This document shows positions 3,246 through 20,222 of a stretch of DNA of 23,990 nt, in pieces; position 1 is the stretch's first letter; every line of letters begins with the position of its first letter. This stretch comes from a virus (Duplodnaviria > Heunggongvirae > Uroviricota > Caudoviricetes). The notes under the pieces were generated by a model. It had not been told where the DNA came from and did no database searches. It was given only the letters and a program-made list of their open reading frames with translations. The stretch spans positions 1-23,990 of IMG/VR virus record IMGVR_UViG_2681813314_000025. The stretch is one strand, 5' to 3'. The translations under genes and the position numbers were made by a program.

Positions 3246-3340
3246 AGGATGGGACGTTTTTACGGGGAGAGCAGGTTAAAGAGACGATACGAAAAAATGT
3301 ATCTCCTCTTGAGCGTTACCGTAAGAACAAAGAACGATAG
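3116..3340 (+). CDS. Hypothetical early protein (74 aa)
   Basis: GGAGAAAG Shine-Dalgarno about 8 nt upstream of the ATG, and a protein-like composition (MYAAESEMVYQFRYRGESYSVPEDD..). Confidence 0.5.
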   Translation: MYAAESEMVYQFRYRGESYSVPEDDLLCCYPSLSGDGSYFFTLKDGTFLRGEQVKETIRKNVSPLERYRKNKER

Positions 3341-3362
3341 CTGCGTTTGGGGGATATGAAGT

Positions 3363-3704
3363 ATGGCAATTAATGGCGCTGCAGCAACTGTTCCATTAAG
3401 CCCCGGTGAACGCCTGAATGGACTTAATCACATTGCGGAGTTAAGGGCGAAAGTTTTTGGCCTGAATATTGAGTCAGAGCTTGAGCGGTTTATTAAAGAT
3501 ATGCGTGATCCACGGGATATCAATAATGAACAAAATAAACGGGCACTGGCTGCCATATTCTTTATGGCAAAAATTCCAGCTGAACGTCATAGCATCAGCA
3601 TTAATGAGCTGACCACTGACGAAAAGCGGGAGCTGATTAAAGCAATGAATCATTTTCGTGCAGTGGTGAGCTTATTTCCCAGACGGCTAACCATGCCGAA
3701 TTAA
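3363..3704 (+). CDS. Hypothetical early protein (113 aa)
   Basis: ORF in the early operon with a GGGGGA-type purine-rich stretch upstream; no motif recognised. Confidence 0.55.
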   Translation: MAINGAAATVPLSPGERLNGLNHIAELRAKVFGLNIESELERFIKDMRDPRDINNEQNKRALAAIFFMAKIPAERHSISINELTTDEKRELIKAMNHFRAVVSLFPRRLTMPN

Positions 3705-3771
3705 CCAACTAATGAAATTAATGGCGTAAACCCGCCGGGCATCCCTTTATCTAAATTCAGGAGAATTGATT

Positions 3772-4005
3772 ATGCGTAATATTGATACCCTCACGACTAA
3801 AACCGGACCGGATGACGCAGGGCTTAATATTTTACTGACAGAGGCTCGTCTGGAAGAACGCCGGGCAAGGGCTGAAGCAATGGCAGCTCGCCTTGATCGC
3901 CTGGCGTGTCATATCACATCCCGCCAGTTAAACCACGTCGAAGCGGCAGAACTGCTGCGTGTGACTGCTGAAGCAATCCAGAACGAAGCGCAGGAGATCC
4001 ACTGA
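3772..4005 (+). CDS. Hypothetical early protein (77 aa), acidic and coiled-coil-like
   Basis: ATG at 3772 with AGGAG 9-10 nt upstream (the track's start at 3766 is a TTG). Its stop overlaps the next start (ATGA-type). Confidence 0.55.
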   Translation: MRNIDTLTTKTGPDDAGLNILLTEARLEERRARAEAMAARLDRLACHITSRQLNHVEAAELLRVTAEAIQNEAQEIH

Positions 4006-4232
4006 TGGCTGATGCAATGGATCTCGTCCAGCAGCGCGTTGAAGAAGAACGCCAACGTCATATCCGTGCTGCCCGTGCCAAAACGCCGGGCGTGTCCCGC
4101 GTGCTTTGCGTTGAGTGTGAAGCGCCAATTCCGCCAGCACGCCGTCGTGCCATTCCGGGTGTGCAGCTTTGCATTACCTGTCAGGAAATCGCAGAGCTGA
4201 AAGGCAAACATTACAACGGAGGTGCTGTATGA
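4005..4232 (+). CDS. TraR/DksA-family C4 zinc-finger protein
   Basis: CxxC-X17-CxxC (CVEC ... CITC) in a 75-aa protein, the spacing typical of the DksA/TraR C4 finger. This differs from the Ogr/Delta CxxC-X22-CxxxxC spacing, so it is not called as the late activator. Confidence 0.7.
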   Translation: MADAMDLVQQRVEEERQRHIRAARAKTPGVSRVLCVECEAPIPPARRRAIPGVQLCITCQEIAELKGKHYNGGAV

Positions 4233-5086
4233 GCACCATCCTGAAATGGGCGGGAAATAAAACCGCCATAATGTCCGAACTGAAAAAGCATCTTCCTGCT
4301 GGCCCGCGACTGGTTGAACCTTTCGCGGGTTCCTGTGCAGTGATGATGGAGACGGATTACCCCAGCTATCTTGTTGCGGATATTAATCCTGATTTAATCA
4401 ACCTCTATAAAAAGGTTGCTGCTGATTGTGAGGCGTTTATATCTCGTGCCAGAGCTTTATTTGAGGAAGCAAACAGGGAGGTGGCTTATTACAACATAAG
4501 GCAGGAGTTTAATTACTCCACTGAAATTACTGATTTCATGAAAGCGGTATATTTTCTGTATCTCAATCGTCATGGTTACCGTGGATTATGTCGCTATAAC
4601 AAGAGCGGGTATTTCAACATTCCCTACGGTAATTATAAAAATCCGTATTTCCCTGAAAAAGAAATTCGCGCATTTGCAGAGAAAGCCCAGCGGGCAACGT
4701 TTATCTGCGCCAGCTTTGATGAAACGCTGGCGATGTTGAAGGCGGGGGATGTGGTGTATTGCGATCCGCCGTATGACGGTACGTTTTCCGGCTATCACAC
4801 TGATGGTTTCACTGAAGATGACCAGTATCACCTGGCATCCGTTCTTGAACATCGGTCATCAGAAGGACATCCGGTCATTGTTTCTAACAGTGACACATCC
4901 CTGATCCGTTCGCTGTATCGCAATTTTACTCACCACTACATCAAGGCAAAACGCAGCATCGGTGTGGCAGCTGGTGATAGTAAATCTGCAACAGAAATCA
5001 TTGCTGTTTCCGGGGCGCGCTGCTGGGTGGGATTTGATCCTTCGCGTGGCGTAGATAGTTCTGCTGTGTACGAGGTGCGTGTATGA
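4229..5086 (+). CDS. dam: DNA N6-adenine methyltransferase, Dam/D12 class (probable GATC specificity)
   Basis: N-terminal ILKWAGNK plus the AdoMet motif EPFAGSCAV, and the catalytic DPPY motif ([12 protein letters not shown]). The start overlaps the upstream stop (ATGA). Confidence 0.85.
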
Positions 5087-7476
5087 GTCATGACGATATG
5101 AGCAACTCTAGCGGCTTTAACGAGGCCGCTGCATCATTTTCATGGAACGGCCCGAAAAAGGCCATTAACCCTTATCTGGACCCGGCGGAATTTGCGCCGG
5201 AGTCTGCACTTTCAAACCTGATCACTCTGTATGCTGCCGATAACGAGCAGGAACAACTGCGCCGCGAGGCACTGAGTGAGCAGGTCTGGGAGCGTTATTT
5301 CTTTAATGAATCCCGTGATCCTGTCCAGCGCGAAATGGAGCAGGATAAGCTCATTAGCCGGGCAAAGCTGGCGCATGAGCAGCAGCGTTTTAATCCAGAC
5401 ATGGTCATTCTGGCTGACGTCAACGCCCAGCCTTCCCATATCAGCAAGCCGCTGATGCAACGTATTGAATACTTCAGCAGTCTGGGCAGGCCAAAGGCTT
5501 ATTCCCGCTATTTGCGTGAGACGATTAAGCCATGTCTGGAAAGACTGGAGCATGTACGCGACAGTCAGCTATCCACTTCTTTTCGCTTTATGGCAAGCCA
5601 TGAAGGGCTGGACGGCCTGCTGATCCTGCCTGAAATGAGTCAGGATCAGGTAAAACGCCTGTCCACCCTGGTAGCAGCGCATATGAGCATGTGTCTTGAG
5701 GTCGCTTGTGGTGATTTGTATGCCACCGATGACGTTAAGCCAGAAGAAATCCGCAAGACATGGGAAAAGGTGGCGGCGGAAACCCTGCGACTGGATGTCA
5801 TACCGCCTGCGTTTGAGCAACTCCGCCGGAAAAGAAACCGCCGTAAACCCGTGCCCTATGAACTTATTCCGGGTTCGCTGGCGCGTATGTTGTGCGCCGA
5901 CTGGTGGTATCGGAAATTATGGAAGATGCGTAGCGAATGGCGGGAAGAGCAGTTGCGTGCTGTTTGCCTGGTCAGCAAAAAAGCATCTCCCTATGTCAGC
6001 TATGAAGCCGTGATGCATAAACGTGAGCAGCGCCGTAAGTCGCTGGAGTTTTTCCGTTCTCATGAACTGGTGAACGAAGACGGCGACACGCTGGATATGG
6101 AAGACGTGGTAAACGCCAGCAGCAGCAACCCTGCGCATCGCCGCAATGAGATGATGGCCTGTGTTAAAGGTCTGGAGCTTATCGCGGAAATGCGCGGTGA
6201 CTGCGCCGTTTTCTACACCATCACCTGTCCGTCACGTTTCCATTCCACGCTAAATAACGGCAGGCCAAACCCGACCTGGACCAACGCGACAGTAAGACAA
6301 AGCAGCGATTATCTGGTCGGCATGTTTGCTGCATTTCGTAAGGCTATGCACAAAGCCGGGTTGCGCTGGTATGGCGTGCGGGTGGCTGAGCCGCATCATG
6401 ACGGCACAGTTCACTGGCACCTGTTGTGTTTCATGCGCAAAAAAGACCGCCGCGCCATTACTGCATTGTTGCGTAAGTTTGCCATCCGTGAAGACCGCGA
6501 GGAGCTGGGCAATAACACGGGGCCACGCTTTAAGTCTGAGCTGATAAACCCGCGCAAAGGAACGCCGACAAGCTACATTGCGAAATATATCAGTAAGAAT
6601 ATTGACGGGCGTGGTCTGGCTGGCGAGATCAGTAAGGAAACGGGTAAATCCCTGCGTGATAACGCTGAATACGTTAATGCCTGGGCGTCTCTGCATCGTG
6701 TTCAGCAATTCCGCTTCTTTGGCATTCCGGGGCGTCAGGCTTACCGTGAACTGCGATTGCTGGCTGGTCAGGCGGCAAGGCAACAGGGGGACAAAAAAGC
6801 AGGTGCGCCGGTACTGGATAACCCGCGCCTTGATGCAATCCTGGCTGCTGCTGATGCTGGTTGTTTTGCCACTTACATCATGAAGCAGGGCGGCGTACTG
6901 GTTCCCCGCAAATATCACCTCATCAGAACTGCTTATGAAATTAACGAAGAGCCGACCGCCTATGGCGATCACGGCATTCGTATTTATGGCATCTGGTCAC
7001 CCATTGCAGAGGGCAAGATCTGCACTCATGCAGTGAAGTGGAAAATGGTTCGTAAAGCCGTTGACGTTCAGGAGGCGGTAGCCGACCAGGGCGCTTGCGC
7101 CCCTTGGACTCGTGGCAATAACTGTCCCCCTGTTGAAAATATGAACAAATCAGGGGGGGATTTACCCGATATTAAAACCATGGATGAGAAGGAGCTGCAG
7201 GAATATCTCCACAACATGGGCCAGAAGGAACGGCGGGAGCTGACAGCCAGGTTGAGACTGGTAAAACCGAAGCGAAAAAAAGCATACATACAGAGTATTT
7301 CGGAGCAGCAGCGCCTGCAGCTTGAGGCAGAACTGACTGCCAGAGGGTTTGAGGGTAGTGTATCTGAGATTGATTTGCTTCTGCGTGGCGGCAGCATTCC
7401 ATCCGGTGCCGGTTTACGTATTTTTTACCGTAAACAGAGGCTGCAGGAAGATGACAAATGGCGTCGATGGTACTAA
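5083..7476 (+). CDS. Replication initiation endonuclease (P2 gpA-type HUH rolling-circle initiator)
   Basis: 797 aa, carrying an HUH-like motif ([13 protein letters not shown]) and a paired-tyrosine motif ([10 protein letters not shown]) as in gpA/phiX174 A-type nickases. It sits between the early operon and the tum/DinI region, as in P2/186. Confidence 0.9.
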
Positions 7477-7568
7477 GGATGCTGTTTAACATTTCGTGCT
7501 TTATTGACTGGAGTCAGTACATCCAATTGACTGACAAAAAAGAGTTTTACATTTTTTCTTTCCTACTA

Positions 7569-7588
7569 TACTGTTTGTATAAACAGTG
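7569..7588 (+). promoter_or_regulatory. LexA (SOS) box TACTGTTTGTATAAACAGTG overlapping a candidate -10 hexamer TATACT (7567-7572)
   Basis: CTGT-N8-ACAG with a strong match to the consensus TACTGTATATATATACAGTA, about 50 nt upstream of the ORF starting at 7635. Confidence 0.6.
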
Positions 7589-7634
7589 GGTATATGTACA
7601 GTATTTGTGTATCCGTGTAATGATAGGAGGGAAG

Positions 7635-7823
7635 ATGCAGGACTATCTTTTGGAGTCATTGAAGCTCCAGCGTATTGATTTTTTTATCAAGCTTGTAGCG
7701 GCTAGTGAGTGCAGCGACGAAGAAAAGCGGCTGGCTATCCAGTGGGTGTCCGAACTGACAGATGAGTTGATGGCGAAAATTCGCAGCCATGAATACAGCC
7801 GATCAATGGACGTTACCAGTTAA
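7635..7823 (+). CDS. Hypothetical small protein; candidate N-terminal module of a Tum-like SOS-induced antirepressor
   Basis: ATG at 7635 preceded by AGGAGGG. It lies directly downstream of the LexA box and immediately upstream of the DinI-like gene. The track's 121-aa version begins upstream of the promoter and is not used. Confidence 0.5.
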   Translation: MQDYLLESLKLQRIDFFIKLVAASECSDEEKRLAIQWVSELTDELMAKIRSHEYSRSMDVTS

Positions 7824-7835
7824 AGGGAAATCTGT

Positions 7836-8057
7836 ATGCGCATTGAAATAATGATCGATAAAGAGCAGAAGATTAGCCAGGCCACACTGGAAGCTCTTGA
7901 ATCCGAGCTCTACCGTAATTTGCGCCCTCTGTATCCCAAAACAGCAATTCGTATCCGTAAGGGCAGCGCCAATGGTGTTGAACTGAGCGGGTTAAAACTG
8001 GATGAAGACAAAAAGCGAGTAATGGAAATAATGCAGCAGGTTACATTAAAACGTTGA
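7836..8057 (+). CDS. DinI-like protein (73 aa)
   Basis: MRIEIMIDKEQKIS..LE.L..EL.... resembles recalled E. coli DinI (MRIEVTIAKT..); the size fits and the gene is in an SOS-regulated context. Confidence 0.75.
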   Translation: MRIEIMIDKEQKISQATLEALESELYRNLRPLYPKTAIRIRKGSANGVELSGLKLDEDKKRVMEIMQQVTLKR

Positions 8058-8218
8058 TCCCGATAGGATCCTATCAGAGGGAACAAGGTTGAACAACGAG
8101 TGAAGCGAGGCGTTAGGTATGGCGGTCATGATCTTCAATGGCCGCCAGCTTTGTACTGTTTGCTCAACCAGCGGGTGCAACATACTTTTCTAACTCGAAT
8201 ATAAGATAAGATTTTTTA

Positions 8219-8247
8219 TTTACAACACTTGGCTTGTTCCTTAGTAT
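8219..8247 (+). promoter_or_regulatory. Candidate sigma70 promoter for the ATPase-HNH operon (TTTACA-17 bp-TAGTAT)
   Basis: Hexamers with 17-bp spacing in an AT-rich region about 45 nt upstream of the ATPase start. Confidence 0.35.
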
Positions 8248-8292
8248 CTAGCTAATCCTGAATGTGGGTTAGTGGAAATTACAAGGAAATAT

Positions 8293-9474
8293 ATGAAACT
8301 GACTGAGCTAACTATAAACGGTATCGGGGGGATAAAGTCCCTGTACGTAAAATTTAGGCCTGACATGAATATTATATGTGGGCCTAACGGAGTTGGAAAA
8401 TCCACACTCTTGCTTGCTGCCTCCTTTCCTTTTCTTCATGGATACACTAATAGAATAAAACGCAATGTCACTTCTGAAACAGGAAGTGTTAGTCTAATAA
8501 TAGAAGATAATTCTGTTAACTTTAATTCAGTATTAGATGTTAACGTTCATTTGCCTACAGAAACAATTCACAACTTTAATAATAACGGATTTGATAAGAG
8601 GAAACTAATAAAATTTGAAATATTACGTAACTTTGATTATAAACATCTTGAGGCGTTGAATGCAGATAAATCACTATCCGATGATGCTGTTTCGCAACAG
8701 ATTAATTTAGGTGTCAATTTACATGATATCAAGGATTGGTTTGCTAAGAGGGATTTGTTTGAAAAAGTAGATAATGGTTACGGTCCTAATACGATAAAAA
8801 ATATACATCTTGCAAGGGAGTGTATATCAATTTTAAACCCTCAGTTTTCTTACAATCGCGTCGATCCTAAATCTTACGATATTTTTGTAAATACCCCGAC
8901 CGGGGTAATATGGTATGAATATCTGTCCTCGGGATTCAAATCATGTATGAGTCTCCTTCTCGGTATTATTAAAGAGATCGAGCTTCGTTATCCGGAGAAA
9001 GATATTTACGCCCAAGAATTTGATGGAGTGATTCTTATCGATGAAATTGAGCTTCATTTGCATCCTGAGTGGCAGGCAAGAATCACTGAAGCCCTTACGA
9101 CAACATTTCCATCAGCACAATTTATTGTCACAACTCACAGCCCACATGTAGTACAGAATGCAAAACCACATCAGATCATTGCGTTAGTACCAGATAATGA
9201 TGGCACAGTGAGAGTAAAAGAACTTCCTGAAAATGGCTTGGGTTATTCTGCCTGGACAGTTGAAGAGGTTTTGTTAGATGTAATGGGGATGGAAAGCACT
9301 CTCAGTAGAAAACTACAAGAACTACTTGATAATTTCGAACGTTTTGTTGATGAAGAAAATTTCGACAAGGCGAAAGAAATTTATGATTATTTGGATATGG
9401 CATTGCATCAAAACAGTATTCTTCGTAAATCTCTTAAAATAAGCCTGATGTCAATTCGAGAGAGAGAAGAGTAA
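8293..9474 (+). CDS. ABC/OLD-type (AAA_21-like) ATPase with no fused nuclease domain; PtuA-like
   Basis: Walker A GPNGVGKST near the N-terminus, an ABC-signature-like LSSGFKS, Walker B/D-loop ILIDEIELHLHP, and an H-loop (TTHSP). There is a long insertion between Walker A and B, as in OLD/Gabija/PtuA-class ATPases. ATG at 8293 with AAGGA upstream (the track's GTG at 8272 is less likely). AT-rich. Confidence 0.8.
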   Translation: MKLTELTINGIGGIKSLYVKFRPDMNIICGPNGVGKSTLLLAASFPFLHGYTNRIKRNVTSETGSVSLIIEDNSVNFNSVLDVNVHLPTETIHNFNNNGFDKRKLIKFEILRNFDYKHLEALNADKSLSDDAVSQQINLGVNLHDIKDWFAKRDLFEKVDNGYGPNTIKNIHLARECISILNPQFSYNRVDPKSYDIFVNTPTGVIWYEYLSSGFKSCMSLLLGIIKEIELRYPEKDIYAQEFDGVILIDEIELHLHPEWQARITEALTTTFPSAQFIVTTHSPHVVQNAKPHQIIALVPDNDGTVRVKELPENGLGYSAWTVEEVLLDVMGMESTLSRKLQELLDNFERFVDEENFDKAKEIYDYLDMALHQNSILRKSLKISLMSIREREE

Positions 9475-9475
9475 A

Positions 9476-10222
9476 ATGATTAAGCTTGAACGGAACTTTA
9501 TTCCTGATTTTTTTACTCGTGTTGATCTTCTATCTTTAACTCAGGAGTTTAAAGATAATGGAACATCTGTTTGGCATCATCCGGAAGTAAAATCGGCATG
9601 TCTAAAATTAAGTAATGGCAAATGTGCATTTTGTGAGGTCAAGCTTGAAGAGGCTAGCACCTATAATGAAATTGAGCATTTTAAGGATAAAAAAAATTTC
9701 CCTGATGATGTTATTAGATGGGAAAATCTCCTTCCTTCATGCCGTCACTGTAATGGTTCAAAACAACGCCATAATGTTGTACTCAATCCTATAATAAATC
9801 CATGCAACGATTTACCGTCAGAACACCTTTATATGATAGGGTATCGTATTAAAGGTAAAACTGATTTAGGTAAAACAACAGTGGATGTTTTAAACTTTAA
9901 TCACAGGGAGCACAAGTTTATACCGCGTTGTAAAGCAGGGGAACTTATAGATAGCAGTATTGATGACGCAATAGAAAAACTTAATTGGTTTAATGAGAAT
10001 CCAAGTACTAGACGTAAAAACATTCTTATGAATCTAGTCGAGGCAATATTAGGTGAGTGTCAGAAAACATCTCCCTTTTCTGCAGTATCAGCAACAATGC
10101 TTCATCGTTCAGTCGAATATTCTTATCTGAAAGAAACCATGCAGATGCAAGGATTATGGTCAGATTATATGCAGGAACTTCATGATGAATCTTTGAGCCT
10201 GACGTTACCGTCAATTCGCTAG
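9476..10222 (+). CDS. HNH endonuclease (PtuB-like)
   Basis: Classic zinc-coordinated HNH finger: CAFCE..(12)..EIEHF ... WENLLPSCRHCNGSK. The start is 1 nt after the ATPase stop, so the two are translationally coupled. Confidence 0.8.
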   Translation: MIKLERNFIPDFFTRVDLLSLTQEFKDNGTSVWHHPEVKSACLKLSNGKCAFCEVKLEEASTYNEIEHFKDKKNFPDDVIRWENLLPSCRHCNGSKQRHNVVLNPIINPCNDLPSEHLYMIGYRIKGKTDLGKTTVDVLNFNHREHKFIPRCKAGELIDSSIDDAIEKLNWFNENPSTRRKNILMNLVEAILGECQKTSPFSAVSATMLHRSVEYSYLKETMQMQGLWSDYMQELHDESLSLTLPSIR

Positions 10223-10248
10223 TTAATACAGTTTTGCCCATAAAAGCT

Positions 10249-10285
10249 AAACGTTCAGATATTCTTGGCTGAACGTTTGATTTTA
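10249..10285 (+). terminator. Rho-independent terminator (10-bp perfect stem AAACGTTCAG/CTGAACGTTT, 10-nt loop, T-rich tail)
   Basis: Perfect inverted repeat 27 nt downstream of the HNH stop, followed by GATTTTAT. Confidence 0.6.
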
Positions 10286-10567
10286 TGAAGACGATAAGCA
10301 GATTGGGCCCGAGTGAGTATCTCGGGAAAATAAACCATTTACATACTATGTTTAACGTTCAAAGCACACCTCAAGCTTTCTTAGTTCTTCTGCTTCGATA
10401 TATAAACGGTCATTTGGTTACGAACATTCACTTCTCCCCTAAGTGCATGGCTATGCTGCATGAGATCGCATGACCGTTTGAGGAGCGTTGTAACGCAGGC
10501 GTGCCAGTTGTGACGGACTTTTTCGTATGTTATGCACCTGCATGAAAACCATTGCACAAAGCGGGCA

Positions 10568-10586
10568 GGCGTGGCGGGGATACGAG
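10568..10586. other. Candidate cos site (cohesive-end region) of the P2/186-type phage
   Basis: GGCGTGGCGGGGA matches the first 13 nt of the 186 cohesive end as I recall it (GGCGTGGCGGGGAAAGCAT; P2 is GGCGAGGCGGGGAAAGCAC). It lies in a non-coding stretch between the right-end cargo and the portal side, where cos is expected. Confidence 0.45.
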
Positions 10587-10696
10587 CGCGCGCTCATGGT
10601 TGAATTAATGAAATTATGGTGTTAAATAGGCTAGCTTTTTAAGTCGTGAATATTCAATTTTTCAACTCATTTTTTTCATAGGGAGGAGTAATTGAC

Positions 10697-11395
10697 ATGG
10701 TTATGTTAGTGGATGACTGTCCACGATGTGGATCACAAAAAATAGCGTTTGATGTTAATGGGCTGAATTGCACTAGGGTTTACAATGCATTGGGCGGGGG
10801 TAAAACATACGAGTACGAGGTCTATTGTGTTTGCCGAGAGTGTCATAAAACGACAATGTTTCTTTGCAGACCTTTAACGAAAAATAAAACTTTAGATGGC
10901 TATAATTGGGAAAGTGGAATATTCGGCTTAAAGGAAGTTGCAGAGGTTGTTAGGCCTATATCACCGGCAGACTTAGCAGTAGAGGAGCCACCAGAGTTCT
11001 TACCTGAGCATATCAATAGTGCATATGAGGAAGGGGCGAAATGTTTGGCTATAGGTTGTTATAATGCAGCAGCAACCATGTTTAGGCTTTGCCTTGATTA
11101 TGCCACAAAAGGACTTCTTCCTGATGGGGAGCAAGGGCCTGCGCAAAAAATAAGGAGAAGCCTAGGGTTAAGAATGGAGTGGTTATTTGATAATCATCTA
11201 CTGCCTGAAGCTTTAAGGGAACTAGCTGAATGCGTTAAAGATGACGGAAATGATGGAGCGCATGAAGGTATTTTGGATAAAGCTGCTGCTGAGGATCTTG
11301 AAGATTTTACCTATCTTTTTTTAGAACGGCTTTACACTGAACCTCAACGCCTTATCGAAGCCAAGACAAGGCGTGAACAAAGAAGAAACAAATAA
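10697..11395 (+). CDS. Zinc-ribbon protein with a DUF4145-like C-terminal helical domain (232 aa); cargo gene of unknown function
   Basis: N-terminal CPRCGS ... CVCRECH cysteine cluster. The C-terminal region has the R...L / GNDGAHE pattern I associate with DUF4145. Strong RBS AGGGAGGAG. It lies between candidate cos and the portal gene, converging on the portal stop with only 8 bp between stops. Confidence 0.65.
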   Translation: MVMLVDDCPRCGSQKIAFDVNGLNCTRVYNALGGGKTYEYEVYCVCRECHKTTMFLCRPLTKNKTLDGYNWESGIFGLKEVAEVVRPISPADLAVEEPPEFLPEHINSAYEEGAKCLAIGCYNAAATMFRLCLDYATKGLLPDGEQGPAQKIRRSLGLRMEWLFDNHLLPEALRELAECVKDDGNDGAHEGILDKAAAEDLEDFTYLFLERLYTEPQRLIEAKTRREQRRNK

Positions 11396-11403
11396 GTTCG
11401 GAA

Positions 11404-12441
11404 TTATTCTTCTGAAAGAATATAGGGCGTAAATTTAATCACTTCTTCGCCCAGCCAGTCGTTCAGCTCTTGTAGCCTTTTTTGCAAGGGCGTTAATTCA
11501 TTACGTACAAATACGCGACTGGCCTTCTCCACATCCCCAAACCCCCCGACATTATTAGGCATTATCCCCATCATTTGTGGCGGCACACGATGCGCCGCCA
11601 TCATGTCGTCCCGGCTCACGTTCTTGATATTCAGGAACTCATCCTTCGCCGCCACTTCTGACAACGGGATAATCTGAAGCCCGTCCTTTTTACCGTTAGG
11701 CGAGTACATAAACAGGTTACGGAAGTTACCAGGACCTTTGGCGCTTTTCATCGCATTGCGGAGGTTGTTCACATCCTCCTGGTTCTGCGCTGCATCGGTC
11801 ATGTACATGATGAAGCCTGCATGACTGCCGTTAATGTAATACTTGCGGCGGAACAGCGTGGCGGACTCGTTGAGCAGAGCTGACGGAATGGCAGAAAGAT
11901 AACCAGGCAGGCCGTAGATCTCCTGGTTGATGTCCGGTTCCATCAGATGAAAAATGTTGCCTTTCGTGAACTGATACGGCTGTGTAGTCATGCCGTATTG
12001 CACAAACCAGTAGGTATCAAGGTCTAACCCGCGTCGGGTGTATTTTGCCAGTGCAGGCTCAAGGGCGATAACTTCACCGAAGCGGTTCGTGCGTTTCTCC
12101 AGGTAGGCGTTACCAAAAACCAGATAGTCCTGTACAAAACGCGAAAAAGCCTGCTGGCTGAGCAGCGGGTGAGGGATGTAGGTGCTGGTCAGAATGTTGC
12201 ACTTCACTGCAATCGGTGAGCTGTGATGCACGGCGGCGCGGAAGGTTCGCGCCAGTCCGTCGAAACTCACAGGCGGCTCGTACCAACGATCCATCTGTAC
12301 GCATTCCACATAGTCCAGCAGTTCGCGGCGGTCCAGAACAGGAACGGGATCACCGAAGCTGAATGCTTCGGCTGAAGTCTGGCTTTTATGCTGGATCTGT
12401 TTCGTCGACGCAGCGCGGTTCTTCTTACTCTTTCCCATCAA
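11404..12441 (-). CDS. Phage portal protein (P2 gpQ family)
   Basis: 345 aa (P2 Q is ~344 aa), immediately downstream of and 4-nt-overlapped by the terminase gene on the same strand, adjacent to cos. Confidence 0.9.
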   Translation of the reverse strand: MMGKSKKNRAASTKQIQHKSQTSAEAFSFGDPVPVLDRRELLDYVECVQMDRWYEPPVSFDGLARTFRAAVHHSSPIAVKCNILTSTYIPHPLLSQQAFSRFVQDYLVFGNAYLEKRTNRFGEVIALEPALAKYTRRGLDLDTYWFVQYGMTTQPYQFTKGNIFHLMEPDINQEIYGLPGYLSAIPSALLNESATLFRRKYYINGSHAGFIMYMTDAAQNQEDVNNLRNAMKSAKGPGNFRNLFMYSPNGKKDGLQIIPLSEVAAKDEFLNIKNVSRDDMMAAHRVPPQMMGIMPNNVGGFGDVEKASRVFVRNELTPLQKRLQELNDWLGEEVIKFTPYILSEE

Positions 12442-17891: not shown

Positions 17892-18384
17892 ACGCTGCCT
17901 TGTCGGGGCCGTGCTGGCTATTGCTGCCACGCTGCCGGGTTTTCAGCAGCTTCACACCTCCGTGGAGGGGCTGAAACTGATTGCTGATTACGAAGGCTGT
18001 CGTCTGCAGCCGTATCAGTGCAGCGCGGGTGTCTGGACCGACGGCATTGGTAATACATCGGGCGTCATTCCCGGCAAAACAATCACGGAACGACAGGCAG
18101 CAGAAGGGCTGATCTCCAACGTGCTGCGTGTGGAGCGGGTACTGGAAAGGTGTGTGAAGCAACTGCCACCACAGAAGGTGTATGACGCTACGGTGTCGTT
18201 TGCCTTCAACGTGGGGACGGGCAATGCCTGCAGCTCCACGCTGGTGAAATTGCTCAATCAGCGGCGCTGGGCGGATGCGTGCCGACAGTTGCCGCGCTGG
18301 GTTTATGTAAAAGGTGTGTTTAATCAGGGGCTGGATAACCGCCGTGCGCGGGAGATGGCCTGGTGTTTACAGGGAGCAAACTGA
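17872..18384 (+). CDS. SAR endolysin (GH24 lysozyme with an N-terminal signal-anchor-release segment)
   Basis: N-terminal hydrophobic SAR-like segment (CLVGAVLAIAATLPGF), then a lysozyme catalytic region (DYEGCRLQPYQCSAGVWTDGIGNT). Confidence 0.8.
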   Translation: MNPSIVKRCLVGAVLAIAATLPGFQQLHTSVEGLKLIADYEGCRLQPYQCSAGVWTDGIGNTSGVIPGKTITERQAAEGLISNVLRVERVLERCVKQLPPQKVYDATVSFAFNVGTGNACSSTLVKLLNQRRWADACRQLPRWVYVKGVFNQGLDNRRAREMAWCLQGAN

Positions 18385-18385
18385 A

Positions 18386-18763
18386 ATGAAAAAGAAATTA
18401 ATCAGCGGACTGTTTCTGATGTTATGGATGGCGCTGTTAATCGCAGCAATGGTGTATCCGCAGGGGATTTTTCCGGTACTGGCAGCGTCCGGCGTTTGGG
18501 TAGCCTGTTTGCTGACATGGGCGGTAATTCCGGTAGCACTGGCTGCGTTAATTAAGAATGGCCCGCTCTGGCAGGAGTTAAGGGCATCTTTACTGAAGAC
18601 AATTACCCGAAAAGAAAACGTATTTATCAGTTGGGTGATGCGATTGCTGATTGTTGTAAGTCTCGCCTGGACGGGGTGGGCTATTACCCTGGTCTTTTAT
18701 CTTCTGACCGTTATTGCCTTCTGGATCACCCGTAATCAGATGGCGAAACAGGTAGCAGCATGA
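18386..18763 (+). CDS. Lysis-accessory integral membrane protein (LysA-like)
   Basis: 125 aa, multi-pass hydrophobic; ATG at 18386 with AGGGAG upstream, between the endolysin and the spanins. Confidence 0.6.
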   Translation: MKKKLISGLFLMLWMALLIAAMVYPQGIFPVLAASGVWVACLLTWAVIPVALAALIKNGPLWQELRASLLKTITRKENVFISWVMRLLIVVSLAWTGWAITLVFYLLTVIAFWITRNQMAKQVAA

Positions 18764-19188
18764 ACCGGTTGCTGCTGGTTGTGCTGGCGTTATTACTGGC
18801 GGCGCTGGGCTGGCAGACGTGGCGGCTGGCTGATGCCAGCCAGACCATCAGCACGCAGGCAGACGAGCTGCAGAGCAAAAGCCAGGCACTGGCAAAGAGC
18901 AACAGCCAGCTTATCAGCCTGTCCATTCTGACTGAAACCAATAACCGGGAGCAGGAGCGGCTCTATGCCGAAGCAGAACAGACCAGCACGCTGCTGAGAC
19001 AACGACAACACCGGATCGAGGAACTGAAACGTGAGAACGAGGATTTACGCCGCTGGGCTGATACTCCTTTGCCTGCTGACATTATCCGGCTGCGGAAACG
19101 TCCGGCACTCACCGGAGGTATGGCTTACCGTCAGTGGTTGTCCGCGAGTGACGCCGTGTCGGCTGGATCAGGCAACGCCGCGCACTAA
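18760..19188 (+). CDS. i-spanin (Rz/LysB-like inner-membrane spanin)
   Basis: N-terminal transmembrane segment followed by a coiled-coil-rich periplasmic region; an o-spanin ORF overlaps its 3' end in another frame. Confidence 0.7.
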   Translation: MNRLLLVVLALLLAALGWQTWRLADASQTISTQADELQSKSQALAKSNSQLISLSILTETNNREQERLYAEAEQTSTLLRQRQHRIEELKRENEDLRRWADTPLPADIIRLRKRPALTGGMAYRQWLSASDAVSAGSGNAAH

Positions 19189-19715: not shown

Positions 19716-20154
19716 ACTGCAGAAGGTGGACGACTGGCTGAGTGCCTTGCTGGCGAATCTGGAACCAGCCTCGAGAAGCCGCATGATGCGCCAGCTGGCG
19801 CAGGAACTTCGCCGGACACAGCAGCAGAATATCAGGATGCAGCGCAACCCTGACGGCAGCAGCTATGAACCGCGACGGGTAACAGCACGCAGTAAAAAAG
19901 GCCGTATCAAACGTCAGATGTTTGCAAAGCTGCGCACCACAAAATACCTGAAAACTGCCGCCAGCACCGACTCTGCCAGCGTGCAGTTTGAAGGCAAGGT
20001 GCAGCGCATTGCCCGCGTTCACCATTACGGCCTGCGAGATCGCGTCAGTCGTAAGGGACCGGAGGTGCGTTACGCAGAGCGTCGCCTTCTGGGTGTAAAT
20101 GATGATGTTGAGGCAATGACCCGCGACATGATTCTGCAATGGCTGGCGGGGTGA
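19708..20154 (+). CDS. Tail completion / virion morphogenesis protein S (P2 gpS family)
   Basis: 148 aa; GTG start overlapping the R stop; at the P2 S position. Confidence 0.8.
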   Translation: MAELQKVDDWLSALLANLEPASRSRMMRQLAQELRRTQQQNIRMQRNPDGSSYEPRRVTARSKKGRIKRQMFAKLRTTKYLKTAASTDSASVQFEGKVQRIARVHHYGLRDRVSRKGPEVRYAERRLLGVNDDVEAMTRDMILQWLAG

Positions 20155-20157
20155 TCT

Positions 20158-20177
20158 TTGTATCAGCACTGATACAA
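20158..20177. promoter_or_regulatory. Candidate Ogr/B-type late-activator site (TGT-N12-ACA) upstream of the baseplate operon
   Basis: TTGTATCAG-CA-CTGATACAA is a 9-bp inverted repeat, centred about 55 nt upstream of the V start (20223), in the 68-bp S-V intergenic gap. Confidence 0.5.
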
Positions 20178-20222
20178 GTTGCAGCACTGCCGCCTTTCTT
20201 CCCCTGATGGCAACCTTTCCCT

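Follow-up and report, generated by a model that had tools for sequence, protein, structure and literature searches.

A zinc-finger–HEPN gene in the cos–portal slot of a P2/186-like prophage belongs to a family related to the phage ring-activated RNase RAZR

A cargo gene between cos and the portal gene

The window analyzed in this study comprises 23,990 nucleotides (positions 1 to 23,990 of IMG/VR virus record IMGVR_UViG_2681813314_000025, Caudoviricetes) and represents a prophage of the 186/P2 type. Its genes are arranged in the order integrase, CI, CII, Dam methylase, gpA, a Septu gene pair, cos, a gene for a DUF4145 protein, and the portal gene, with the large terminase gene next and genes for the capsid, lysis, and tail after it. 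The DUF4145 gene, which is the subject of this report, lies at 10697–11395 on the plus strand, starts with ATG, and encodes a zinc-finger–HEPN protein of 232 amino acids that is distantly related to the anti-phage RNase RAZR. A Shine–Dalgarno sequence read from the DNA (GGGAGGAG, 10681–10688, plus strand) is located 8–10 nucleotides 5′ of the start codon, and GGAG-type sites are kept 5′ of the ATG in related cassettes. The gene converges on the phage's own portal gene, a gpQ homolog (11404–12441, minus strand; PF04860, E 1e-18) that bears the same annotation in phage Cartapus and in Escherichia coli records, and 8 bases (11396–11403) separate the two stop codons. The ORF, its strong ribosome-binding site, its convergence with the portal gene, and the 8-bp gap had been described in an initial annotation of the window, and all of them hold.

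The encoded protein, WP_000245245.1, has the same sequence as CARTA_1, the product of gene 1 in Escherichia phage Cartapus (Peduoviridae; the LF82 prophage). The two genes are also identical at the nucleotide level, with cos at 1–59 and the gene at 162–860 in Cartapus coordinates. A word-indexed search retrieved 603 homologs, nearly all of them about 230 amino acids long and matching over their full length, and an exhaustive search yielded 927 representatives at 50% clustering. Given these homologs and their full-length conservation, the open reading frame (ORF) is, on sequence grounds, a real gene rather than a chance ORF, and the label "orphan" that it had initially received cannot be retained.

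The position of cos beside the gene, which had also been proposed, is supported in two ways. The cos site annotated in Cartapus corresponds to 10536–10594 of the window and ends 100 bp 5′ of the identical gene. Within it, a core of 19 nucleotides (GGCGTGGCGGGGATACGAG, 10568–10586) aligns to cosL of P2 (NC_001895, positions 1–19) and is homologous to the P2 cohesive end, GGCGAGGCGGGGAAAGCAC. Alignments of carriers and empty sites place this core in a conserved cos segment (10443–10594) common to P2-like prophages with any cargo: matches to the window begin at about 10408–10443 in carriers of the DUF4145 gene, Septu carriers are 100% identical to the window as far as 10594, beyond which they diverge, and colinearity between the window and the APEC O18 empty site extends to about 10591. 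Downstream of this segment, alignment to APEC O18 and P2 delimits a single-gene cargo cassette of about 810 bp (10595–11403, plus strand) that ends at the portal stop codon and stands in place of the short terminator-bearing spacer (the tQ region) of P2 and empty-site prophages. In P2 itself, the rho-independent terminator tQ occupies 160–181 and the stop codon of Q lies at 187, which leaves the slot essentially without cargo. The figure of about 100 bp initially given for the interval between cos and the portal stop in P2 is roughly right.

The guanine–cytosine (GC) content of the cassette is 41.8% compared with 52–57% in the flanking portal and terminase genes, and this low value marks the cassette as acquired. 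It contains no second ORF, and no known RNA family, RNA element, or repeat was detected in it. A consensus scan found no sigma-70 promoter on the plus strand. A weak candidate extended −10 element (TGGTGTTAAA, 10619–10628, plus strand) has counterparts reading TGnTATCAA or TGnTATTTA at the same place in related cassettes; it may instead belong to the cos flank. No intrinsic terminator was predicted in 10200–11500, including the junction between the convergent portal and DUF4145 genes. With tQ replaced and no predicted terminator in this junction, late P–Q transcripts probably run antisense through the DUF4145 gene. That such transcription silences the gene during lytic growth is speculation.

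Domain architecture and conservation of the protein

The protein is composed of four segments. An N-terminal Cys4 zinc-ribbon domain (amino acids 1–87; 10697–10957, plus strand) carries the knuckles C8-x2-C11 and C46-x2-C49 and is followed by a linker (amino acids 88–103, ISPADLAVEEPPEFLP; 10958–11005, plus strand) that BLASTP identifies as homologous to the RAZR linker (RAZR residues 64–79). The HEPN/DUF4145 domain (amino acids 104–215; 11006–11341, plus strand) holds the motif residues R130, K181 (codon 11237–11239, plus strand), N185, and H189 (codon 11261–11263, plus strand). A C-terminal helix extension (11342–11392, plus strand) ends in a conserved basic tail in which A222, R225, R226, and R229 form invariant alignment columns, and this tail may act as an RNA-binding or assembly element.

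The domain assignments made initially from the sequence were borne out by profile searches. Pfam DUF4145 (PF13643) matches amino acids 114–203 with an E-value of 4.5e-7 and 30.3 bits, which passes the gathering score of 23.1 bits. The Cys cluster CPRCGS/CVCRECH is present as described, with C8, C11, C46, and C49 invariant or nearly so in alignments of 35–68 homologs, and the GNDGAH motif is nearly invariant in the family. The zinc ribbon is likewise supported by the Cys4 N-terminus and by knuckles in register with those of RAZR; profile matches to the zinc ribbons of L33 and RPA12 are weak. An AlphaFold2 model built on an alignment of homologs from the representative search reached a predicted local distance difference test (pLDDT) score of 94.3 and shows a beta-rich N-terminal domain and a helical C-terminal domain; a single-sequence model (pLDDT 39.4) was discarded. 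The C-terminal domain has the alpha-helical fold of the HEPN superfamily. However, the canonical R-x4-6-H motif of that superfamily is absent, and the protein has K181-x7-H189 instead.

Conservation across 68 family representatives is concentrated around this motif. His189 is kept in 66 of the 68, N185 in 64, and R130 in all, and D186 is also under strong constraint. The position of the catalytic Arg is occupied by R in 41 representatives, K in 21, Q in 4, and L and T in 1 each. Other invariant or nearly invariant residues are E112, N123, D134, R159, and the stretch G184-N185-D186-x-x-H189, and the linker residue P99 is found in all 68. Mean pairwise identity is 34% in the zinc ribbon versus 68% in the HEPN domain, making the zinc ribbon the most variable part of the protein.

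Members 44–53% identical to the protein were found in species-representative genomes of Enterobacterales, Pseudomonas, Vibrio, Halomonas, and Burkholderiales, and also in Nitrospirota, Omnitrophota, Verrucomicrobiota, Pirellulales (Planctomycetes), Syntrophales, and Campylobacterales. Such identity over distant phyla, without a conserved neighbor, suggests that a self-contained gene has spread widely by horizontal transfer. PHROG 1305, labeled "DNA binding protein", covers the whole protein (E 1e-52), no NCBIfam model was found for it, and a search of BFVD returned two full-length matches, both unnamed.

Relationship to RAZR

PD-T7-4 was discovered as a single-gene system described as "Zn finger-HEPN" (Vassallo et al. 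2022, PMC9519451) and was subsequently renamed RAZR, for ring-activated zinc-finger RNase, and characterized (Zhang et al., Nature 2026, PMC13017515). Its Cys4 zinc-ribbon domain is joined through a conserved linker to a DUF4145 domain, which is a divergent HEPN RNase. RAZR alone is non-toxic, even when overproduced, and acts by abortive infection; it is switched on as 24 copies assemble around phage rings of about 170 angstroms, namely portals (T7 gp8, T3, SECphi18) or the Erf-like recombinase Gp77 of SECphi27, and it then cleaves single-stranded RNA nonspecifically (PMC13017515). Defense requires R146 and H154, and R146A abolishes it. Specificity is set by the zinc-finger domain (ZFD), and the inter-dimer contacts D179, D180, and R184 are required for activation, V21 also being among the inter-dimer residues (PMC13017515).

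Several searches connect the protein of the window with this system. PD-T7-4 (PDLC04109) is its sole PADLOC match, and a weak one (E 1.2e-6, 26.1 bits, covering model positions 39–165 of 211, or 60%); the same model is matched by 54 of the 68 family representatives, with a best E-value of 3.4e-11. Sequence searches of the PDB with the single protein or with a narrow enterobacterial profile gave no match, and only the broader family profile reached RAZR (chain 9y9c, E 6.4e-4). Direct comparison was made with an alignment of the canonical RAZR family and with RAZR-Ec itself (E. coli UMB1727, RRL46918.1; PDB 9Y9C/9Y6U). BLASTP against RAZR-Ec aligns amino acids 88–215 with residues 64–180 at 26% identity over 128 amino acids and pairs the linker prolines P90, P98, and P103 with three prolines that are invariant in RAZR (P66, P74, and P79). 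Profile–profile alignment with hhalign gives a probability of 96.7% (E 4.7e-10) for the linker plus HEPN domain and 82.8% for the zinc-finger domains alone, with both Cys knuckles in register. Thus, the protein has the two-domain build of RAZR, with a Cys4 ribbon, a conserved linker, and a DUF4145/HEPN domain in one polypeptide of about 25 kDa.

The residues on which RAZR depends are conserved unevenly. CRIVGNQAVH of RAZR aligns unambiguously with CIREDGNDGAH of the family, so that N150 corresponds to N185, the catalytic His is kept (H154 to H189), and the catalytic Arg is replaced by Lys (R146 to K181). At the RAZR interface, D179 and D180 fall in a gap of four residues and R184 lies opposite the invariant E215, next to a T-x-P flank common to both proteins. 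Because of the Lys in place of Arg, the lost inter-dimer residues, the longer ZFD, and the different tail, the protein is best placed by sequence in a sister clade of RAZR rather than in RAZR proper.

Placement of the gene across the family

Viral and cellular genomes give different pictures of where family members reside. Among IMG/VR homologs at least 49% identical, 47 of 51 sit immediately upstream of a P2-type portal gene and converge on it, and two more contigs hold extra cargo between the gene and the portal. The portal-adjacent position is kept even where the portal is only 62–68% identical and gpA about 32% identical. In species-representative genomes, 4–5 of 80 members lie near a P2-type portal, and the idea that portal adjacency is a general trait of the family was therefore dropped. 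No recurrent partner gene emerged from the neighborhoods of members outside P2-type prophages, with no Pfam family occurring in more than 2 of 140 neighbors. Distant phage homologs are found beside a gpD-like tail gene, DNA methylases, or a Zot-like inovirus gene. With heterogeneous neighbors, no recurrent partner, and few members near P2-type portals, the family is a free-standing single-gene module, one clade of which is stably settled in the P2 cos–portal slot.

Individual homologs illustrate this range. In Gordonia phage Meyran, the homolog is gene 1 and sits beside the genome end and terS (94–783 of the sequence examined). The homolog in Stx phages lies as a moron within the early replication region, on the opposite strand (Shigella phage POCJ13, 3968–4714). 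The distant homologs in Meyran and the Stx phages all have R-x7-H. A partial match in E. coli A7 (NZ_CP028767.1) was considered as a possible ZFD swap and rejected as an IS3 truncation; the C-terminal 116 codons are left beside the IS3 insertion in an apparently degraded prophage (3309–4960 of the extracted locus).

Two cargo slots joined at cos

The interval between gpA and gpQ, the old/tin locus, is a known P2 defense hotspot (Rousset et al. 2022, PMC9122126; Vassallo et al. 2022, PMC9519451, as "P2 defence hotspot #1"; Nucleic Acids Research 2026, PMC13586616). WP_000245245 itself is entered in Table S5 of Rousset et al. (PMC9122126). The gene has the properties of cargo of this hotspot, lying between gpA and the portal and varying among similar prophages. 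About 1,250 of 5,426 complete E. coli genomes match the cos/portal junction, and the gene is present in 39–43 of them (about 3%). The variability of the cos–portal slot, anticipated in the initial annotation, is thus evident: about 97% of E. coli P2-like prophages lack the gene, and the slot offers alternative cargos and empty sites. Its other occupants include a STAS-like gene with a hypothetical gene, an S1 peptidase with a hypothetical gene, DUF4062, PIN, SieB-family, and TIGR02391 genes, and a Cap4-nuclease-domain gene with a hypothetical gene. In APEC O18 and P2, it is nearly empty, holding a short terminator-bearing spacer.

On the gpA side of cos, the window carries PtuA (8272–9474; PADLOC E 1e-151) and PtuB (9476–10222; PADLOC E 2e-95). 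This Septu pair (8272–10222) is a complete system with a GC content of about 36%. The two sides reassort. The same DUF4145 cassette occurs with three left-of-cos cargos, namely Septu in the window, two hypothetical genes in LF82/Cartapus, and a gene for a hypothetical protein of 433 amino acids in E6, and the identical Septu module (100% up to window position 10594) occurs in four E. coli genomes with other portal-side cargo. A second, independent cargo locus across cos, as had been suggested, is therefore supported from both directions. The combination of Septu and DUF4145 seen in the window was found in 0 of the 5,426 complete E. coli genomes, and the window looks like a recombinant joined within the conserved cos segment of about 150 bp. 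On these alignments, that segment (10443–10594) is the apparent joint at which the left module (Septu) and the right module (DUF4145) recombine. One Septu carrier, E. coli EC50, has in its portal-side slot (6132–8859 of the extracted locus) a Cap4-type double-stranded-DNA nuclease gene (PF14130, E 1e-33) and a gene for a hypothetical protein of 552 amino acids, a pair that is possibly an uncharacterized two-gene system.

Other features of the window

The gpA gene (PF05840) lies at 5083–7476. A comparison with Cartapus shows that its minus-strand hypothetical gene CARTA_14, located between the S and V genes (Cartapus 9146–9868), is missing from the window (20057–20210). The window also has about 400 bp more at 18365–18771 (Cartapus 7830–7860), between the endolysin and LysB genes, where an ORF at 18314–18763 gave no Pfam match.

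Discussion

The initial annotation had raised a single-gene defense or abortive-infection function, and this is the best-supported reading because the sole characterized relative, RAZR/PD-T7-4, is such a system. We consider that the ORF probably encodes a prophage-borne, single-gene anti-phage RNase of the RAZR kind, acting by abortive infection. In the mechanism we propose, the DUF4145 domain would be a HEPN-fold RNase with a composite site formed by H189, N185, and R130, in which Lys181 replaces the catalytic Arg of RAZR and would have to support catalysis. The fast-evolving Cys4 zinc ribbon would serve as the sensor, binding a protein of the infecting phage. Binding would reposition the HEPN domains, leading to RNA cleavage and translational arrest and blocking the spread of the competing phage, so that the lysogen, and hence the prophage, would be protected. 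The weakest step of this proposal is that the trigger would be a ring-shaped phage protein, for example a portal or an Erf-like recombinase. The gene itself would move as the cassette of about 810 bp in the cos–portal slot of P2/186-like phages, independently of the slot on the Septu side. Its surroundings are those of defense, with Septu next door and PIN, SieB, Cap4-nuclease, and TIGR02391 genes in the same slot elsewhere.

Several observations weigh against this interpretation. The relationship to RAZR is distant, with a PADLOC match of 26 bits over 60% of the model, and the ZFDs of the two proteins are barely alignable. The Arg that is essential in RAZR is a Lys here. The inter-dimer contacts of RAZR are not conserved, and ring-templated assembly of a 24-mer therefore cannot be assumed. 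The PHROG label names a DNA-binding protein, and the cassette has no convincing promoter. Furthermore, if portals were the trigger, the phage's own portal, encoded by the adjoining gene, would create a risk of self-activation at induction.

Three other explanations were considered, each less well supported than a RAZR-like defense RNase. The gene might serve the phage's own cycle, as a packaging accessory at cos or the portal, as a nucleic-acid-binding regulator whose ribbon binds DNA or RNA, or as an RNase that, late in infection, assembles on portal rings of the phage itself and shuts off host RNA. The PHROG label, the conserved basic tail, and the location of the gene, which lies 100 bp from cos, is separated by 8 bp from the portal gene, and has this place in 47 of 51 viral contigs, would agree with such a role, as would the Meyran homolog, also gene 1 near a genome end and terS. 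Nevertheless, a gene missing from P2, APEC O18, and about 97% of E. coli P2-like prophages is not a core gene, and 75 of the 80 species-representative members lie far from a P2-type portal among unrelated neighbors. The low GC content marks an acquisition, the slot otherwise holds defense-type genes, and an RNase active during the phage's own late gene expression would damage the phage. We regard an own-cycle role as quite unlikely.

The replacement of the catalytic Arg by Lys here (some relatives have Q, L, or T), together with the loss of RAZR-type inter-dimer residues, would also suit a HEPN pseudo-enzyme, that is, a non-cleaving binder or decoy that acts, for instance, in anti-defense or in superinfection exclusion by coating another phage's portal or recombinase ring. 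However, the constraint on H189 (66/68), N185 (64/68), D186, and R130 (68/68) is difficult to account for if no active site exists. As a conservative substitution, Lys is able to stabilize a phosphoryl transition state, and Arg is kept in most of the wider family (41/68), which leaves loss of catalysis about as improbable as an own-cycle role. A gene on a mobile element might, finally, be an addiction or toxin module that stabilizes the prophage, in which a constitutively dangerous RNase is restrained by a phage factor and no incoming phage is sensed. The cassette, however, offers neither an antitoxin ORF nor a known RNA, relatives elsewhere have no conserved partner, and RAZR alone is non-toxic when overproduced; we consider this explanation very improbable.

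If the gene is merely another defense moron, it is ordinary, as it is well established that prophage hotspots are rich in single-gene defenses. The locus nevertheless points to a large, phylum-spanning sister clade of RAZR whose members are barely detected by standard defense-finder profiles. RAZR is so far a single characterized case in which immunity is switched on through supramolecular assembly on a phage ring, and a sister clade that differs at the catalytic residue and the oligomerization contacts would test the generality of its mechanism. It also raises the question of how a phage carrying a relative of a portal-triggered suicide RNase escapes triggering by its own portals. One answer, which we offer as rather unlikely, is that the clade comprises RNases that sense phage rings such as the portal ring and are kept welded to the phage's own portal allele, 8 bp away with no terminator in between, discriminating self from non-self portals. 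If so, linkage would secure co-inheritance of the sensor and the tolerated portal, competitors with a different portal, including related peduoviruses or satellites, would be excluded, and antisense P–Q read-through would silence the sensor during the phage's own lytic growth. Such an arrangement would be a phage-encoded self/non-self system that reads the geometry and surface of a virion protein.

Comparison with known systems

The published gpA–gpQ hotspot is treated as one locus, whereas here it consists of two modules separated by cos that reassort independently; P2's own old and tin lie on its gpA side. The locus was already known; dividing it at cos into two joined modules refines that description. 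Viewing the hotspot as two cos-joined slots affects how its "arrangements" are counted.

Among HEPN proteins, the HepT/MNT toxins, AbiV, the HEPN domain of AbiA, Csm6/Csx1, and LsoA/RnlA have R-x4-6-H and function as dimers or with CARF, MNT, or antitoxin partners. In contrast, the protein described here has the x7 spacing and a fused zinc ribbon and lacks a partner gene. These are the features that it shares with RAZR. Both are single polypeptides of about 220–230 amino acids with a C-x2-C ... C-x2-C N-terminal ribbon and a conserved Pro-rich linker, both have seven residues ahead of the catalytic His (R146-x7-H154 in RAZR) within a G-N-x-x-x-H core, and the Arg of the LLRLCL motif, R105 in RAZR, corresponds to R130. 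The ZFD evolves fastest in both, with identities in RAZR of 46% for the ZFD versus 88% for the HEPN domain, and both are single-gene systems carried on mobile elements in Enterobacteria. The two proteins also differ. Identity is only 26% over the linker plus HEPN domain, and the ZFD, which is about 25 residues longer, can be aligned only at the profile level. R146 is replaced by Lys181, D179, D180, and R184 become gap, gap, and Glu, and the basic C-terminal tail has no counterpart in RAZR. Finally, canonical RAZR-Ec has two integrases next to it and marks the edge of a different element, whereas the gene of the window occupies the P2 cos–portal slot.

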